Positions 16,843-57,074 of a DNA stretch of 57,074 nt are shown piece by piece. The notes under the pieces were generated by a model that was not told the origin of the DNA, did no database searches, and saw nothing but the letters and a program-made list of their open reading frames with translations. Numbering within the stretch: the stretch's first letter is position 1; each line of letters begins with the position of its first letter. The position numbers were made by a program, and so were the translations under genes. Origin of the DNA: a virus; the UHGV virus genome UHGV-2195224; one strand, given 5' to 3'.

Positions 16843-17079
16843 ATGTCTCGACTAATCACTTTACAGGACTGGGCTAAAGAAGAATTTGGGGACTTAGCAC
16901 CAAGTGAGCGAGTTCTGAAAAAATACGCGCAAGGGAAAATGATGGCCCCACCCGCTATAAAAGTTGGTCGCTACTGGATGATTGACCGAAATTCCCGTTT
17001 TGTAGGAACGCTTGCAGAACCGCAACTCCCAATAAACGCAAACCCAAAACTCCAACGGATAATCGCTGATGGCTGCTAG
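16843..17079 (+). CDS. xis: excisionase-like protein
   Basis: 78-aa ORF with strong SD aggagg, directly upstream of and overlapping int; homologous to 55721-55966. Confidence 0.6.
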   Translation: MSRLITLQDWAKEEFGDLAPSERVLKKYAQGKMMAPPAIKVGRYWMIDRNSRFVGTLAEPQLPINANPKLQRIIADGC

Positions 17080-18211
17080 ACCCCGATCTCACAAAATCTC
17101 TATACCCAATTTATATTGCAAATTAGATAAGCGAACCGGAAAGGTATATTGGCAATACAAACATCCACTATCCGGTCGTTTTCATAGCTTAGGAACTGAT
17201 GAGAATGAAGCAAAACAAGTTGCTACTGAAGCAAATATCATTATTGCTGAACAACGTACCCGACAAATATTAAGCGTCAATGAGCGTCTGGAAAGAATGA
17301 AAGGCAGGCGCTCAGACATTACGGTGACAGAATGGCTTGATAAATATATTTCTATCCAGGAGGACAGGCTGCAACATAATGAACTAAGACCCAACTCCTA
17401 TCGGCAAAAAGGCAAACCCATTCGTCTTTTCCGTGAGCATTGTGGAATGCAACACCTCAAGGATATTACCGCACTTGATATTGCCGAAATAATTGATGCT
17501 GTAAAGGCTGAAGGTCATAACAGGATGGCGCAAGTCGTGAGAATGGTGTTAATCGACGTCTTCAAAGAAGCACAACACGCAGGACATGTTCCGCCAGGAT
17601 TTAACCCAGCGCAGGCAACAAAACAACCGCGAAATCGAGTAAACCGCCAAAGATTATCACTGCCCGAATGGCAGGCAATATTTGACAGCGTAAGCAGACG
17701 GCAGCCCTATTTAAAATGTGGGATGCTACTTGCTCTTGTCACTGGACAACGTTTAGGCGATATCTGCAATTTGAAATTCTCTGATATCTGGGACGACATG
17801 TTGCACATTACTCAGGAAAAAACCGGTTCAAAACTTGCTATTCCGCTTAACCTGAAATGCGATGCTCTGAATATTACCCTTCGTGAAGTTATATCTCAGT
17901 GCAGGGATGCTGTTGTTAGTAAATATCTGGTCCATTACCGTCACACAACCTCTCAAGCAAACAGAGGAGACCAGGTTTCTGCGAATACTCTGACAACGGC
18001 TTTTAAAAAGGCCAGGGAAAAATGTGGCATAAAATGGGAGCAAGGAACTGCGCCCACATTTCATGAGCAGCGATCTCTGTCAGAACGGTTATATCGGGAA
18101 CAGGGTCTGGATACGCAAAAGTTGTTAGGCCATAAATCCAGAAAAATGACCGACCGATACAATGATGATCGTGGTAAAGACTGGATTATCGTAGATATCA
18201 AAACAGCATAG
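17069..18211 (+). CDS. int: tyrosine integrase (lambda Int family), icd-targeting type
   Basis: 380-aa ORF; catalytic-domain motifs ...LVTGQRLGDI..., ...HEQRSL..., ...LLGHKSRKMTDRY...; adjacent to the icd-derived att core; paralogous to 55947-57074. Confidence 0.9.
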   Translation: MAARPRSHKISIPNLYCKLDKRTGKVYWQYKHPLSGRFHSLGTDENEAKQVATEANIIIAEQRTRQILSVNERLERMKGRRSDITVTEWLDKYISIQEDRLQHNELRPNSYRQKGKPIRLFREHCGMQHLKDITALDIAEIIDAVKAEGHNRMAQVVRMVLIDVFKEAQHAGHVPPGFNPAQATKQPRNRVNRQRLSLPEWQAIFDSVSRRQPYLKCGMLLALVTGQRLGDICNLKFSDIWDDMLHITQEKTGSKLAIPLNLKCDALNITLREVISQCRDAVVSKYLVHYRHTTSQANRGDQVSANTLTTAFKKAREKCGIKWEQGTAPTFHEQRSLSERLYREQGLDTQKLLGHKSRKMTDRYNDDRGKDWIIVDIKTA

Positions 18212-18324: not shown

Positions 18325-18489
18325 TTACATGTTCTTGATGATCGCGTCACCAAACTCTGAACATTTCAGCAGTTTAGCGCCTTCCATCAGACGTTCGAAG
18401 TCATAGGTTACGGTCTTCGCGTTGATTGCGCCTTCCATACCTTTAACAATCAGGTCTGCGGCTTCAGTCCAGCCCATATGGCGCAGCAG
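18325..18489 (-). pseudogene. icd: isocitrate dehydrogenase (icd) 3-prime-terminal fragment = prophage att core
   Basis: Minus-strand translation [54 protein letters not shown] then stop; an in-frame TAA sits immediately upstream so it is not fused to an icd body. Confidence 0.8.
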
Positions 18490-18933
18490 TAGTTAGATGG
18501 TTCATATACAACCGCATGATAAATAAAAATAATCCTATAATTTTATTGTAAATCAACTGGCTTTTATCTTTCCCCTAACCTATTGATTATCAATGTATGT
18601 TTTTTGGTTTTGATAACCGTTTTAGAGGGCAAAAACAAGTGCCTGTACCTATCAGCCCCTTCACGGCAAAGGGATTTTAAATCATGCGTGTTTTCACAAA
18701 CTATCAATGGCTTAACTAAATTTTTCGCCAATAACGTACGCTGTGAGTGAGAGGTGGATATGAAGTTACACACTCCCGGAAAATAAAGAATTGAGCGTTA
18801 TCTCATGCTATTAATGAAAAGTGTTTGCTTAATAGATTACATATAACTATGATTCAAGCCCAATTAAAGTCGTGTGTCTTTGGCTTAAATTGGCAAACAA
18901 ACAATCAAGTCAAGAATATAAAGGAACTATTCA

Positions 18934-19902
18934 ATGAATAAGAATTATAAAACGTTTAAACTTGAACTATGGGAGAAGTTTAAGCATCAATGTGCTTACT
19001 GTGGCACTAAACTTTATGAACCATTGATGGCGGATGTTGATCGTTTTTTCCCAAAATCAAAGTATACTGACTTCCAAGATGCTACAGACAACCTGCTCAT
19101 CGCTTGTAAGGCATGTAGCATGATTAAAAAAGATCAGTTTCCTCTCGATGAAAATGGCAAACCATTACTTCTAAATCCTTTAAATGAAAGTTTTTCAGAA
19201 CATATAAAACAAAATAAAAATGGATATTTAGAAGGTTTAACTGAGCGAGGACATGCGACTATAGATATATTACAGTTGAATAGACCTTCATTAATTGAAC
19301 AGCGCATTCTAGATGTTATTGATATGCAGTACTCTGATGATCGAACGCTATCTGAACGAGATGTCTATATGACATTCCAAAATAGTATGCAGAACGCCAT
19401 AAAACTAAATGATGCTCAGTTAAAAATTGATAGCACTTTACAAATACAAATGTCGTATATGCTATATGCCAATACAATAACTTCCTTGGAAACATATTTA
19501 TGTGACAGATTTATTTCCCTAATTCATGGTAGCCAAACTAATTTGAGAAATTTTGTTGAAACCTTCAAAGATTACAATACAGAAAAATTCTTACTTTCTG
19601 AATTATTTATAAGGCATGAACAAATAGAGTCTCAAGCGATAGAGTCTATGAAGAGTGTTCTTTATCATAATCTGCCAAAAGTAAGTGGCATGTATCGAGA
19701 TACCTTTGGTATTAAATTCCCTGTTTTCACAGAAGTTTATAAAAGCGTGTTAATTAGGCATGACTTAGTTCATCGAGCAGGTAAAACAAAAAATGGTAAT
19801 TTTCATAAGTTAGATTCAGAGTCAGTTAAAGATGTTATCAAAAAATGCTGTGACTTGGTTGAACAACTAGAAAAAGAGCTTAAAGATTGTGCATCATTCT
19901 AG
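18934..19902 (+). CDS. uncharacterized protein: N-terminal HNH-like Cys4 zinc-finger domain plus C-terminal helical domain with R-x4-H (HEPN-like) motif
   Basis: 322-aa AT-rich ORF; CAYCG...DVDRFFPKSKY...DNLLIACKACSMIKKD (Arg where the catalytic His is expected); C-terminal ...SVLIRHDLVHRAGK...; SD aagga. Confidence 0.55.
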   Translation: MNKNYKTFKLELWEKFKHQCAYCGTKLYEPLMADVDRFFPKSKYTDFQDATDNLLIACKACSMIKKDQFPLDENGKPLLLNPLNESFSEHIKQNKNGYLEGLTERGHATIDILQLNRPSLIEQRILDVIDMQYSDDRTLSERDVYMTFQNSMQNAIKLNDAQLKIDSTLQIQMSYMLYANTITSLETYLCDRFISLIHGSQTNLRNFVETFKDYNTEKFLLSELFIRHEQIESQAIESMKSVLYHNLPKVSGMYRDTFGIKFPVFTEVYKSVLIRHDLVHRAGKTKNGNFHKLDSESVKDVIKKCCDLVEQLEKELKDCASF

Positions 19903-20095
19903 GTAATTGCCACCAAATCGAAGGTGATCGCGCTTGCGGTCACCAAAAGTAATAAACTATTCATTCCCATTCGATCATCTGAACCAACACAATTTTATTT
20001 AATAAAGTTGACCTACTTCATTATTTGATACCCATCCAATGTGCGCAAGGGCTGCTTCTGGCACATGGTTACCCTTGATGAGAAGGTAGATCACC

Positions 20096-20219
20096 GCTAT
20101 GGGGTGTCGGGGGCGGAGGTTCAAATCCTCTCGTGCTGACCAAAAATCCTCGAAGAACCAGCCTGTTACGGCTGGTTTTTTTTGCCTGTTTTCTGAACGG
20201 GGAAGCAATGGGGAAATTA
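20096..20219 (+). repeat. direct repeat copy 1: 3-prime 45 nt of a tRNA-Pro gene (to ACCA at about 20142) plus its terminator and flank
   Basis: ctatggggtgtcgggggcggaGGTTCAAATCCtctcgtgctgACCA then aaccagcctgttacggctggttttttt; no 5-prime tRNA half upstream. Confidence 0.7.
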
Positions 20220-20405: not shown

Positions 20406-21191
20406 ATGGATGAAAAATACAGAAGATTTGTTGATGAGGTTGACTTTTCAAGACAATTATTAGGCATAGGGCTCACTTCCCTAAGGAAAGCAAATTTTGC
20501 AAGTAGAGGATTGTATTTTCAAGCATTATCCGGCATCAGTTTAGGATTAGAAAGGCTTATGAAACTTTGCCTTATGCTTGATGATTATAATAAAAATGGA
20601 AAATATACATCACGCAAAAAATTAAGAGATTACGGTCATAACTTAAGCAAGTTATTCAACCTAGTCATTGAGAGAGTTGATTCTCCCTCTGGCTTAAATG
20701 AAATTCACTACAGAGTGATGGAGTTGTTAACTAATTTTGCAAATTCATCAAGATATAGTAATATTGATTTCATTACTAATGACAACGACAATGATCCCAT
20801 GAAGCAATGGTATAATGAAATCGATAAGAGCATTTACGATAAAATATTAACAAAAAGACAAAAAAATATAATTGATAAAAAATGCGAGCAATACCGAAGC
20901 TATGGTGAAACACTGCCATGCTATGTGCTTGGATATTATGATGAAGACAGAAACCATATAAACTCTGCAGGGGATTTAAATTATTTACTTAAAAGAAGTG
21001 AAATGCTTGCTGGTTATCGCACTTTATTAGTTATTCATATCATAGAATGCATCTATAACATATTAGACTCAATGACAGTTCAAGCAAAAGATAATCACTT
21101 CCACCATCTTGAATTAGGTCGTTTTTTTGCAACCATCATTTATGGCTCTGATAGAGACAAAATCAATAGAAAAAATTTTATCCGTATGTGA
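20406..21191 (+). CDS. uncharacterized AT-rich protein (about 261 aa from ATG at 20406) bracketed by tRNA-Pro-fragment repeats
   Basis: SD gagg 6 nt upstream; MDEKYRRFVDEVDFSRQLLGIGLTSLRKANFASRGLYFQALSGISLGLERLMKL...; no recognised catalytic motif. Confidence 0.55.
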   Translation: MDEKYRRFVDEVDFSRQLLGIGLTSLRKANFASRGLYFQALSGISLGLERLMKLCLMLDDYNKNGKYTSRKKLRDYGHNLSKLFNLVIERVDSPSGLNEIHYRVMELLTNFANSSRYSNIDFITNDNDNDPMKQWYNEIDKSIYDKILTKRQKNIIDKKCEQYRSYGETLPCYVLGYYDEDRNHINSAGDLNYLLKRSEMLAGYRTLLVIHIIECIYNILDSMTVQAKDNHFHHLELGRFFATIIYGSDRDKINRKNFIRM

Positions 21192-21267: not shown

Positions 21268-21389
21268 CTATGGGGTGTCGGGGGGCGGAGGTTCAAATCC
21301 TCTCGTGCCGACCAAAAATCCTCGAAGAACCAGCCTGTTACGGCTGGTTTTTTTGCCTGTTTTCTGAACGGGGAAGCAATGGGGAATTA
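21268..21389 (+). repeat. direct repeat copy 2: tRNA-Pro 3-prime fragment (to ACCA at about 21314) plus terminator and flank
   Basis: Near-identical to 20096-20219 with a few substitutions/indels (e.g. ctgacca vs ccgacca). Confidence 0.7.
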
Positions 21390-21588: not shown

Positions 21589-22257
21589 ATGTGTGGACGC
21601 TTTTCACAGTCAATGACCCGTGAAGATTATCTTGCCCTTCTCGCTGATGAATCAGAACGCGATATTCCATACGATCCAGAACCCATCGGAAGATTCAACG
21701 TAGCGCCAGGAACAAAAGTTCTGCTTCTGAGCGAACGTGATGAGCAGTTGCATCTTGATCCAGTTATCTGGGGATACGCCCCCGGTTGGTGGGATAAACC
21801 GCCGCTCATTAATGCACGGTCTGAAACTGCTGCCACCAGCAGAATGTTTAAACCACTCTGGCAGCATGGCCGCGCAATTTGCTTTGCTGATGGATGGTAT
21901 GAGTGGAAAAAGGAAGGCGACCAAAAACAACCCTACTTTATTCACCGGGCAGACGGTCAGCCGATTTTTATGGCGGCGATCGGCAGCACACCATTCGAAC
22001 GTGGAGATGAAGCAGAAGGTTTCCTGATAGTTACAGCTGCAGCTGACAAAGGACTGGTTGATATTCACGACAGACGACCACTGGTACTGCTACCGGAAGC
22101 CGCGCGTGAATGGATGAGGCAGGATGTTGGAGGGAAAGAAGCAGCGGAAATTGCAGCCGACGGTGTTGTACCGGCTGATAAATTTATATGGCACGCCGTA
22201 ACGCGTGCCGTCGGGAATGTGAAAAATCAGGGCGCCGAACTAATAACGCCAATATGA
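21589..22257 (+). CDS. SOS-response-associated peptidase (SRAP / YedK-like abasic-site processing protein)
   Basis: 222-aa ORF starting MCGRFSQS (catalytic Cys2) with SD ggagg; occupies the slot where a Pin/Gin invertase gene would be expected. Confidence 0.7.
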   Translation: MCGRFSQSMTREDYLALLADESERDIPYDPEPIGRFNVAPGTKVLLLSERDEQLHLDPVIWGYAPGWWDKPPLINARSETAATSRMFKPLWQHGRAICFADGWYEWKKEGDQKQPYFIHRADGQPIFMAAIGSTPFERGDEAEGFLIVTAAADKGLVDIHDRRPLVLLPEAAREWMRQDVGGKEAAEIAADGVVPADKFIWHAVTRAVGNVKNQGAELITPI

Positions 22258-22451
22258 TTACATCACCGGACAATCATCAAACTCCGCGTTCCTCGCATCA
22301 TTAATGATGTAAGTAATCACCCCGAATATCGCGGGAGCAGAACCGTAACCGTCATCATCTACTGGTAGCATCTCCCTTCTCCCGCTCTCCAAATTAATCA
22401 GGTGGTGTTGAGGATGAGTCCGATATCGCTTGATCCTGAACTCCCCGTCGA

Positions 22452-22934
22452 TTGCACATATCAGCAGTGAGCCATCGCAGTTTGGGAGAAGGTGCTCCAG
22501 CTATTGGCGTTCCGTTCTTCTGGGCGTCCGCTGCAATGCCAAATACTGTAATCGACAGCTGGTCCAGTATGGTGTTTTTGAAGTTCAACGGGGCGAAATT
22601 TTCTGCCACTGATTACCCTGTGCTGGCGAAAGTGTTTCCGGCGTTGGCATTACCTGACGCACGCGGTGATTTCATTCGTGTCTGGGATGACGGGCGAGGT
22701 GCAGATGGTGGTCGCGAATTATTAAGCTGGCAGGCAGCTACAAACTTTTCTCAGTTTGCCGGGAATATAGGCGAAGGTGCGGGACACGCAATTAACTTTC
22801 ATGATGGCATCGCCGGAAATCAGCCAGGATTTTCACGATTTAATTTCACCAGTAACTCTGTGGGTGATGGTGTGAATTTTGTTGCTGTCAGACCGCGAAA
22901 TATTGCATTTAACTTTCTGGTGAGGGCTAAATAA
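22452..22934 (+). CDS. tail-fibre alternative C-terminal segment (silent inverted cassette)
   Basis: ...GEGAPAIGVPFFWASAAMPNTVIDSWSSMVFLKFNGAKFSATDYPVLAKVFPALALPDARGDFIRVWDDGRG...; begins at the inverted-repeat crossover half-site, no constant N-terminal part. Confidence 0.7.
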   Translation: MHISAVSHRSLGEGAPAIGVPFFWASAAMPNTVIDSWSSMVFLKFNGAKFSATDYPVLAKVFPALALPDARGDFIRVWDDGRGADGGRELLSWQAATNFSQFAGNIGEGAGHAINFHDGIAGNQPGFSRFNFTSNSVGDGVNFVAVRPRNIAFNFLVRAK

Positions 22935-55720: not shown

Positions 55721-55966
55721 ATGCTTCAAATGCTGACACTTGAGGAATGGGCTGCGGAAAAATTTAGGAGTAACCCTCCAAGTGTGTCCACATTGCGTCG
55801 TTATGCTAAGCAGAATTTATTTTGTCCACCGGCAATGAAACAAGGTCGACTATGGCGAGTACGTGAGGACGCAGAGTTAGTTGGAGAATTAGTTACTCCT
55901 GTCATTAAGAAAAGTGATTCTATTATTCTACAAAGGATTTTAAGTAATGGCAGCCAGACCACGTAA
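55721..55966 (+). CDS. xis: excisionase-like protein (paralog of 16843-17079)
   Basis: 81-aa ORF MLQMLTLEEWAAEKFRSNPPSVSTLRRYAKQNLFCPPAMKQGRLW...; overlaps int start. Confidence 0.55.
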   Translation: MLQMLTLEEWAAEKFRSNPPSVSTLRRYAKQNLFCPPAMKQGRLWRVREDAELVGELVTPVIKKSDSIILQRILSNGSQTT

Positions 55967-57074
55967 GAATAATGTTTCAGTCCCGAACTTGTATCCGCTC
56001 TATAGCAGAAAAGTAAATAAAGTTTATTGGCGATATAAGCATCCAGTGACCGGGAAGTTTCATTCTTTGGGCACAAACGAAGCTGAAGCCATTGCTATTG
56101 CCACTGAGGCCAATACACGCCTAGCTGAGCAAAGAACCCGGCAGATTCTAGCTATCAGTGACAGGATCGCAACCAGCAAAGGAAAAGCAATCACAACGTC
56201 AACCTGGTTAGATCGCTATCAAGCAATCCAGGAAGACAGACTGAAAAGTGGCGATATAAAGCTCAACACCTATAAACAGAAAGCCAAACCAGTATCCTTG
56301 CTCAGGGAACGAGCAGGACTGAAGTTGATATCAGCCGTTGATGTCAGAGATATAGCACAATTACTTGATGAGTATATCTCTGCTGGACAGCCTAGAATGG
56401 CCCAGGTCGTAAGGTCTGTATTGATCGATGTGTTTAAGGAAGCACAGCATTACGGCGAAGTTCCACCAGGGTATAACCCTGCTCTTGCAACGAAGCAACC
56501 CAGAAGGAAAATTAGCCGTCAACGCCTCAGCCTAGAAGAATGGAAAAAAATATTCGATATCGCAGACGCCGCTCATCGTTATATGGGAAATGCCATGCTC
56601 CTAGCTTTGGTCACAGGGCAGCGTTTAGGAGATATATCCAAAATGAAATTTAGTGATATTTGGGAGGATCATCTTCACGTCATTCAGGAAAAGACCGGGA
56701 GCAAAATCGCTATCCCTCTTTCTTTACGTTTGAATGCTATCAACTGGTGTTTACGTGATGTAGTAGCTCGCTGCCGTGACTACGCAGTCAGCCCATACTT
56801 AGTGCATTTTTTCCGTACTACATCACAGGCTGAACGTGGCGCACAGGTAAAAGCTAATACACTAACGATGAACTTTAGCAAGGCACGTGATCTGGCAGAA
56901 ATTGATTGGGGTACTGGAACTCCAGCAACTTTTCATGAACAAAGATCTTTATCTGAGCGTCTTTACAAGGAACAAGGGATTGATACCAGAAAGTTACTGG
57001 GCCATAAAACCCAGCAGCAAACCGATCGTTACCATGATGACCGAGGGAAAGGTTGGAGCAAAGTAGCATTGTAA
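55947..57074 (+). CDS. int: tyrosine integrase (paralog of 17069-18211)
   Basis: 375-aa ORF ending at the last base of the window; ...LVTGQRLGDI..., ...HEQRSL..., ...LLGHKTQQQTDRY... Confidence 0.9.
   Translation: MAARPRKNNVSVPNLYPLYSRKVNKVYWRYKHPVTGKFHSLGTNEAEAIAIATEANTRLAEQRTRQILAISDRIATSKGKAITTSTWLDRYQAIQEDRLKSGDIKLNTYKQKAKPVSLLRERAGLKLISAVDVRDIAQLLDEYISAGQPRMAQVVRSVLIDVFKEAQHYGEVPPGYNPALATKQPRRKISRQRLSLEEWKKIFDIADAAHRYMGNAMLLALVTGQRLGDISKMKFSDIWEDHLHVIQEKTGSKIAIPLSLRLNAINWCLRDVVARCRDYAVSPYLVHFFRTTSQAERGAQVKANTLTMNFSKARDLAEIDWGTGTPATFHEQRSLSERLYKEQGIDTRKLLGHKTQQQTDRYHDDRGKGWSKVAL

Follow-up and report, generated by a model that had tools for sequence, protein, structure and literature searches.

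A solitary prophage protein joining a PtuB-type HNH domain without its general-base histidine to a HEPN domain with an intact R-x4-H motif

The PtuB nuclease of Septu and of type I-A retrons (e.g., Retron-Eco7/Ec78) is accompanied by an ABC-ATPase partner, PtuA. Its HNH domain comprises residues 1-152, with C43, C46, C78 and C90 as zinc ligands and His57 as catalytic residue, and its C-terminal domain (residues 153-216) binds PtuA; in retron-Eco7, the exchange H57A abolishes defence (PMC12673091). PtuB systems cut tRNA-Tyr in vivo, and Septu PtuAB has been reported to be DNA-degrading (PMC12673091). A different nuclease module, the HEPN domain, is found in the Ribo L-PSP-HEPN family, which is considered catalytically competent and distantly related to AbiD/AbiF; generic HEPN-HNH DNase fusions have been noted for HEPN domains, and a PtuB-type HNH fusion is not among them (Anantharaman et al. 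2013, PMC3710099). Here we describe a gene at 18934..19902 (+) of the virus genome UHGV-2195224, a stretch of 57,074 nucleotides analysed as a whole and hereafter called the window. Judged by profiles and alignments, its product is a PtuB-type Cys4 HNH domain without a general base, joined to a HEPN domain with an intact motif and carried as solitary cargo in slots where defence genes are exchanged.

The open reading frame begins with ATG and encodes 322 amino acids followed by a stop codon, at the coordinates given by an initial annotation that had been made from the sequence letters. The HNH-HEPN fusion protein that it specifies is sequence-identical to WP_032162444.1, which RefSeq labels 'HNH endonuclease', and a large protein collection has the identical full-length protein (P0061) from 463 E. 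coli contigs. The gene had been described as AT-rich and as equipped with its own Shine-Dalgarno sequence, and both descriptions hold: its GC content is 0.32-0.34 (33% overall) against 0.43-0.52 in the flanks, and an AAGGA resembling a Shine-Dalgarno sequence lies at 18921..18925 (+), 8 nt before the ATG. All of the motifs quoted at that time are likewise present, namely C20-A-Y-C23, D34-V-D-R37-F-F-P-K-S42, D52-N53-L-L-I-A-C58-K-A-C61 and R275-H-D-L-V-H280.

Residues 1-135 (18934..19338, +) correspond to a zinc-finger HNH domain (beta-beta-alpha-Me) of the PtuB/TIGR02646 type, including the PtuB-specific extension with its invariant LNR...R motif. Pfam gives a weak match for this N-terminus (HNH_4, E 0.034), and the PtuB models of PADLOC match residues 6-156 with an E-value of 1e-23. 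Among 30 aligned relatives, all 30 match the NCBIfam PtuB model (best 4e-18) and 29 match TIGR02646, and a profile built from the family retrieves the solved PtuB/TIGR02646 chains of retron I-A complexes (E 2.7e-7). The HNH scaffold that had been proposed for the N-terminus is borne out by these profile and fold tests, which moreover assign it to the PtuB type. The first zinc-ligand pair, C20-x-x-C23 (18991..19002, +), aligns with C43/C46 of PtuB; it is invariant in all 60 full-length members of our conservation set, which includes divergent representatives from an exhaustive profile search and of which 59 could be aligned at the HNH core. The second pair, C58-x-x-C61, is followed by Ser62 (AGC; the three elements together 19105..19119, +), and both of its cysteines are invariant in the 59 aligned members, as is Asn53; Pro40 is also fixed. 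The protein has the Cys4 zinc beta-beta-alpha fold of the HNH superfamily and departs from that superfamily at the general base. Where relatives carry a His codon (CAC), the window has CGT at 19042..19044 (+), encoding Arg37, and this arginine aligns with the histidine of four references, in agreement with the earlier reading of the motif. The same column is His in the group II intron maturase HNH, in retron-Eco7 PtuB (His57) and in EcoKMcrA, and in 28 of the 30 family members of a first alignment.

The comparison with PtuB also brings out what sets the present protein apart. No PtuA ATPase lies near the gene, whose neighbours are an icd fragment and an open reading frame with a HEPN fold; the PtuA-binding C-terminal domain of PtuB is replaced by a HEPN domain after residue ~135; and the catalytic His57 of PtuB corresponds to a position that is Arg here and evolutionarily labile in the HNH-HEPN family. 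The window protein also scores far under the PtuB equivalog cut-off.

The remainder of the protein, residues ~140-322 (19351..19899, +), is by fold and profile an all-alpha HEPN domain of the RiboL-PSP-HEPN (PF18735) type. Twelve of 30 close relatives match HEPN_RiboL-PSP at E <= 0.01 (best 5.7e-9), and more distant proteins that have only this domain in common with the window protein reach 28.5-42.2 bits, above the gathering score. Both the all-alpha fold and a conserved R-x4-6-H motif are present, the latter as R275-H-D-L-V-H280-R281 (19756..19776, +). Such a string is by itself within chance expectation, as shuffles of this protein contain a mean of 1.0 matches and at least one match in 64% of cases; RHDLVH gains its significance from its invariance in 60/60 homologues and its placement in the HEPN fold. 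The proposal that RHDLVH is a HEPN signature is sustained, and the profile searches once suggested as a check of the HNH and HEPN assignments have left both domain calls standing under profile and fold tests. A fold search in BFVD returned no match at E <= 0.001. With described RiboL-PSP-HEPN proteins the domain shares the ~180-residue C-terminal four-helix HEPN fold and the conserved R-x4-H; the architectures reported for that family are fusions to endoRNase L-PSP and locations in ParB operons (PMC3710099), whereas the partner here is a PtuB-type HNH. Elsewhere the same HEPN subfamily is joined to HEPN_RES_NTD1, to a PNP_UDP_1 nucleoside phosphorylase or to a P-loop NTPase (ResIII/ABC-like), with P0129, P0198, P0132 and P0231 as representative proteins of such fusions to other N-terminal partners. 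Since one subfamily is thus combined with several N-terminal modules, the comparison points to HEPN as the constant unit, a putative modular effector domain with swappable partners. The exhaustive profile search recovered ~17 full-length clusters at 50% identity versus hundreds with the HEPN domain alone.

The two domains differ in how their active sites have been conserved. On the HEPN side, E186, H245, R275, H276, D277, H280 and R281 are invariant in 60/60 members. At position 37 of the HNH core, 46 of the 59 aligned members have His; the other 13 have one of R, Q, N, A, C and S, and a neighbour-joining tree requires no fewer than 10 changes to account for them. Because the histidine has been lost repeatedly while the Cys4 and HEPN residues remain fixed, the alignments indicate that strict constraint acts on the zinc scaffold as well as on the HEPN site, and that HNH catalysis is probably dispensable. 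The lack of the catalytic histidine, as originally reported, is thus a property of the window allele and does not extend to the family as a trait. Position 62, the helix metal-ligand column, is Asn in 43/59 members, Ser in 8/59 and occupied by other residues in the rest; the spacing of the relatives' Asn is that of Asn863 in Cas9. We considered N62S as a second decisive inactivating change and gave it little weight, as PtuB itself has Gly at this position and Ser also occurs in relatives that keep the histidine. One member, from Sediminicola luteus (L033:8007-8903, 298 aa), has an intact HEPN motif and an HNH core that could not be aligned, the columns of the His, of the second Cys pair and of the Asn being gaps; its N-terminal module has possibly been further degraded or replaced.

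The Asp-Arg of the window (GAT CGT) is Glu-His (GAG CAC) in the nearest relatives, found at 83% identity in Serratia, Proteus and Enterobacter, which also have Asn (AAC) instead of Ser (AGC) at position 62. A full-length Citrobacter freundii protein (WP_171859430.1, 97% identical) has both R37 and S62 and differs at ~9 other residues. As the 83% relatives still have His, the loss is, on these alignments, specific to the E. coli/Citrobacter lineage, though recurrent in the family. From columns conserved in at least 93% of members the window protein deviates at two positions only, H37R and P45T. Measured against the 83% relatives, the ratio of nonsynonymous to synonymous substitution rates (dN/dS) is 0.20-0.24 for the whole protein; the HNH core alone gives 0.25-0.33 and the HEPN domain 0.20-0.23. 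A dN/dS of ~0.2 together with only two departures suggests that the protein is not generally decaying.

The positions in which the gene and its homologues are found bear on its possible role. In the window it has a displaced 3' fragment of icd on one side and, on the other, the first copy of a twofold tRNA-Pro 3'-fragment repeat, as had been described (18325..18477 and 20097-20215, respectively). The gene order in K-12 e14 is ymfQ, stf/tfa, pinE, mcrA, icdC, iraM, and since mcrA is there found between the pinE/tail-fibre genes and icdC, the HNH-HEPN gene occupies the mcrA slot; its assignment to the e14 mcrA position was therefore correct. In Serratia, the homologue (P0002) is a lone gene flanked by the primase and integrase genes of a P4-like satellite and neighbours a type I restriction-modification system; we take the interval from primase to integrase to be the defence hotspot of the satellite. 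In Pantoea, a lambdoid prophage carries a homologue with cI on one side and xis/int on the other, and one in Vibrio parahaemolyticus (L009-L011) lies in an array resembling integron cassettes, with short cassettes and recurring ORFs of ~25-30 aa between them, which looks like a chromosomal integron. The latter homologue is preceded by a 406-aa gene that has no Pfam match and may share its cassette. In Bacteroidota, Saccharibacteria and Firmicutes, homologues adjoin SIR2_2, CAP12/Pycsar-TIR or Fic genes.

A search for a partner of the protein across these contexts gave negative results. An all-versus-all BLAST of 12 loci found no gene family common to the neighbours and no conserved PtuA-like ATPase. 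Neither the window nor the 12 homologous loci have an adjacent MNT nucleotidyltransferase antitoxin gene, which places the protein outside the HEPN-MNT toxin-antitoxin systems. Several distant loci have an immediately upstream gene of 380-407 aa on the same strand, and we rejected these as a conserved partner since they are mutually unrelated (14-26% identity): among them are SIR2_2 and Fic genes, one for a TIR effector and some of unknown kind. Among sequenced phage isolates and plasmids, only relatives of the HEPN domain turned up, and no full-length homologue. The architecture is not in PADLOC 2.0, where the HEPN half is without a model; no paper on the HNH-HEPN architecture or on the accession was found in the searched literature, and it is absent from the Domainator paper on the P4 hotspot.

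We consider it probable that these proteins constitute an uncharacterised nuclease family with two modules, whose members are solitary cargo of temperate phages, satellites and integron cassettes and would most likely serve as one-gene abortive-infection or defence effectors. In such a system the HEPN domain would be the indispensable catalytic effector, an RNase, and the PtuB-like module would be kept mainly for nucleic-acid binding, targeting or regulation. HNH cleavage would then be optional in the family and absent in the E. coli allele, and in most relatives the HNH domain may also cut. Phage growth would be stopped upon infection by RNase cleavage of RNA from the host, the phage or both. 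The single prophage HEPN protein HepS responds to a phage protein: once activated, it cleaves tRNAs in the anticodon loop (PMC13043305); because both HepS and PtuB systems cut tRNA, tRNA would be a plausible substrate here as well. HepS (from Gifsy-1), AbiV, the C-terminal domain of AbiA and RnlA/LsoA are likewise solitary HEPN proteins with the shared fold, borne by prophages or plasmids, that detect an infection and respond to it themselves; they come, however, from other HEPN subfamilies and are without a PtuB-type HNH module. The initial annotation had cast the HNH module in a DNA-binding role and the HEPN-like domain as effector. A non-catalytic HNH beside a HEPN effector is supported by a histidine lost at least ~10 times with Cys4 and HEPN residues invariant; DNA binding as such is not established, as PtuB relatives cleave tRNA-Tyr as well as DNA.

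If the gene is a working defence gene, it would represent a compact one-gene system of ~320 aa that combines two well-known nuclease modules in an uncharacterised way, and the nuclease fold of Septu and retron PtuB would be shown to act without an ATPase partner. The contrast between repeated natural loss of the HNH histidine and an invariant HEPN site further offers a ready-made comparative experiment on a catalytically dead HNH fold in an immune protein. We speculate, tentatively and with less conviction than for the defence role itself, that the family descends from a Septu effector as a single chain independent of PtuA, and that its HNH fold could be a catalytically dispensable module for the recognition of tRNA or of a phage nucleic-acid cue, which targets or gates the HEPN RNase. 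Were this true, H37R and the ~10 other losses of the histidine would be natural separation-of-function variants, and recognition rather than cleavage would be what has been conserved.

Several observations weigh against the interpretation as a defence effector led by the HEPN domain. Genomic context is the sole basis for a defence role, and the gene is rare, being present in 8 of 5426 complete E. coli genomes; promoter-like matches upstream of it are no commoner than in shuffled sequences. Most members (46/59) retain the catalytic histidine, so that the HNH domain may be a true second effector in those that bear it, and the alleles without it could be weakened. The dN/dS values cover the whole branch, in which the time since H37R is not separable, and hence are not direct evidence of purifying selection after the loss. 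That the HEPN domain probably works as a dimer with a composite R-x4-H site, as other HEPN nucleases do, is a point that we purely infer. Finally, on the window protein itself the domain models stay below their thresholds: PF18735 gives an E-value of 0.011 and 16 bits against a cut-off of 28.4, and NF041761 (PtuB) gives 32.7 bits, under its cut-off of 150. TIGR02646 reaches 17.7 bits, under 52.15. Despite these sub-cut-off scores the resemblance to PtuB is, by profile evidence, real, because the PADLOC models match at E 1e-23 and 30/30 relatives match the NCBIfam PtuB model.

The same body of evidence has to be read against other explanations. The E. coli allele might be a disarmed relic of a family that works via HNH, with or upstream of HEPN, in which H37R (together with N62S) killed function; the reading frame would then be intact only for want of time since the loss, or through carriage of the gene by its prophage. 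The presence of His in 46/59 members, including all of the closest relatives, would be expected in that case, and so would the loss of PtuB-mediated defence upon H57A (PMC12673091), the rarity of the gene in E. coli and the existence of truncated or frameshifted copies (P0006, P0066-P0074). Such a history nevertheless sits uneasily with a protein that departs from near-invariant columns twice only, has all HEPN invariants intact and shows a dN/dS of about 0.2 in both domains. R37 and S62 are, in addition, common to E. coli and Citrobacter copies, both of them full-length, and ~10 independent losses of His in otherwise conserved full-length proteins imply that forms without it are viable; we therefore regard a relic as unlikely. 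A role that serves the mobile element, as a toxin or addiction module or as an RNase of benefit to the phage (e.g., in post-segregational killing or in host RNA turnover during lytic growth), seems to us less likely still, given that none of the 12 loci has a conserved adjacent antitoxin or MNT gene and that the genes occupy cargo slots expressed in lysogens, at the int-distal end of e14 or between primase and integrase of a P4-like satellite, near other defence genes.

The location in the mcrA slot raises the further question of a DNA-targeting, restriction-type nuclease that has replaced McrA, in which the HNH domain would cut DNA via Arg37 or some other residue, with a non-catalytic HEPN-like domain as helical or dimerisation element. 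The PADLOC model mREase_IV does match the HNH core (E 2.3e-11), Septu PtuAB is reported to degrade DNA (PMC12673091), and HEPN-DNase fusions are common in restriction-modification contexts (PMC3710099). EcoKMcrA, however, has a C-terminal HNH and an N-terminal 5-methylcytosine reader, whereas the window protein has its HNH at the N-terminus, no modified-base reader domain, no catalytic histidine and an added HEPN domain; we rejected orthology with McrA, as the BLASTP match to the K-12 protein is confined to 28 residues in the HNH core (E 0.15). A column that varies among N, Q, A, S, C and R in place of His is incompatible with a conserved DNase site, and an invariant R-x4-H with invariant flanking residues would be unexpected in a purely structural domain, which makes this explanation highly improbable. 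As possible explanations, all three appear to fit the conservation pattern and the context less well than a family of HEPN-led defence effectors.

With regard to the surrounding locus, the icd 3' fragment at 18325..18477 (-), recognised by its translation, is an attachment-site remnant that marks the int-distal boundary of an e14-like prophage; identical loci annotate it as partial isocitrate dehydrogenase, and it corresponds to K-12 icdC. To its left lies the int/xis end of a lambdoid prophage (bet/exo; xis 16843..17079; int 17069..18211), and the e14-like prophage runs rightward to a second lambda-type integrase (55947..57074) at the window end. The region is a tandem prophage array at icd. 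Identical loci have the order iraM, icdC, HNH-HEPN gene, 261-aa hypothetical, SRAP peptidase, frameshifted S24 peptidase, DinI, Pin-type recombinase, tail-fibre genes, YmfQ and baseplate genes. The int-distal end of e14-like prophages integrated at icd could accordingly be seen as an exchangeable slot for defence cargo, which holds mcrA in K-12 and here the HNH-HEPN gene and a second gene with a HEPN fold.

This second gene, ORF 20406..21191, is bracketed by a direct repeat of ~118 nt (20097-20215 and 21268-21386; 99-100% identical, spacing 1171 nt), in each copy of which a strong hairpin and a T-run come after a tRNA-Pro 3' fragment; the repeats look like the duplicated att-type ends of a mini-insertion. 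A functional link between this ORF and the HNH-HEPN gene was considered and rejected: in spite of the common HEPN fold, the two proteins are not similar at the profile level (hhalign probability 0.06), a terminator-containing repeat lies between the two genes, and in Proteus the ORF is found by itself, at the end of a P2-like prophage, and it is not present beside the HNH-HEPN homologues of the Serratia P4-like satellite or the Pantoea prophage. ARAGORN and Rfam detected no intact tRNA or known RNA family around the HNH-HEPN gene, the tRNA-Pro pieces being 3' fragments only. A hairpin at 19924-19945, 22 nt past the HNH-HEPN stop codon, consists of a 9-bp stem and a 4-nt loop (GGTGATCGC GCTT GCGGTCACC); it has no T-run on the + strand, and a terminator scan did not call it. 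Further downstream, the SRAP (YedK-like) peptidase gene is found at 21589..22257, and within 21589-22934 of the window the S24-peptidase/DinI/Pin-recombinase segment between the SRAP and tail-fibre genes seems to be absent in comparison with strain CDF6.
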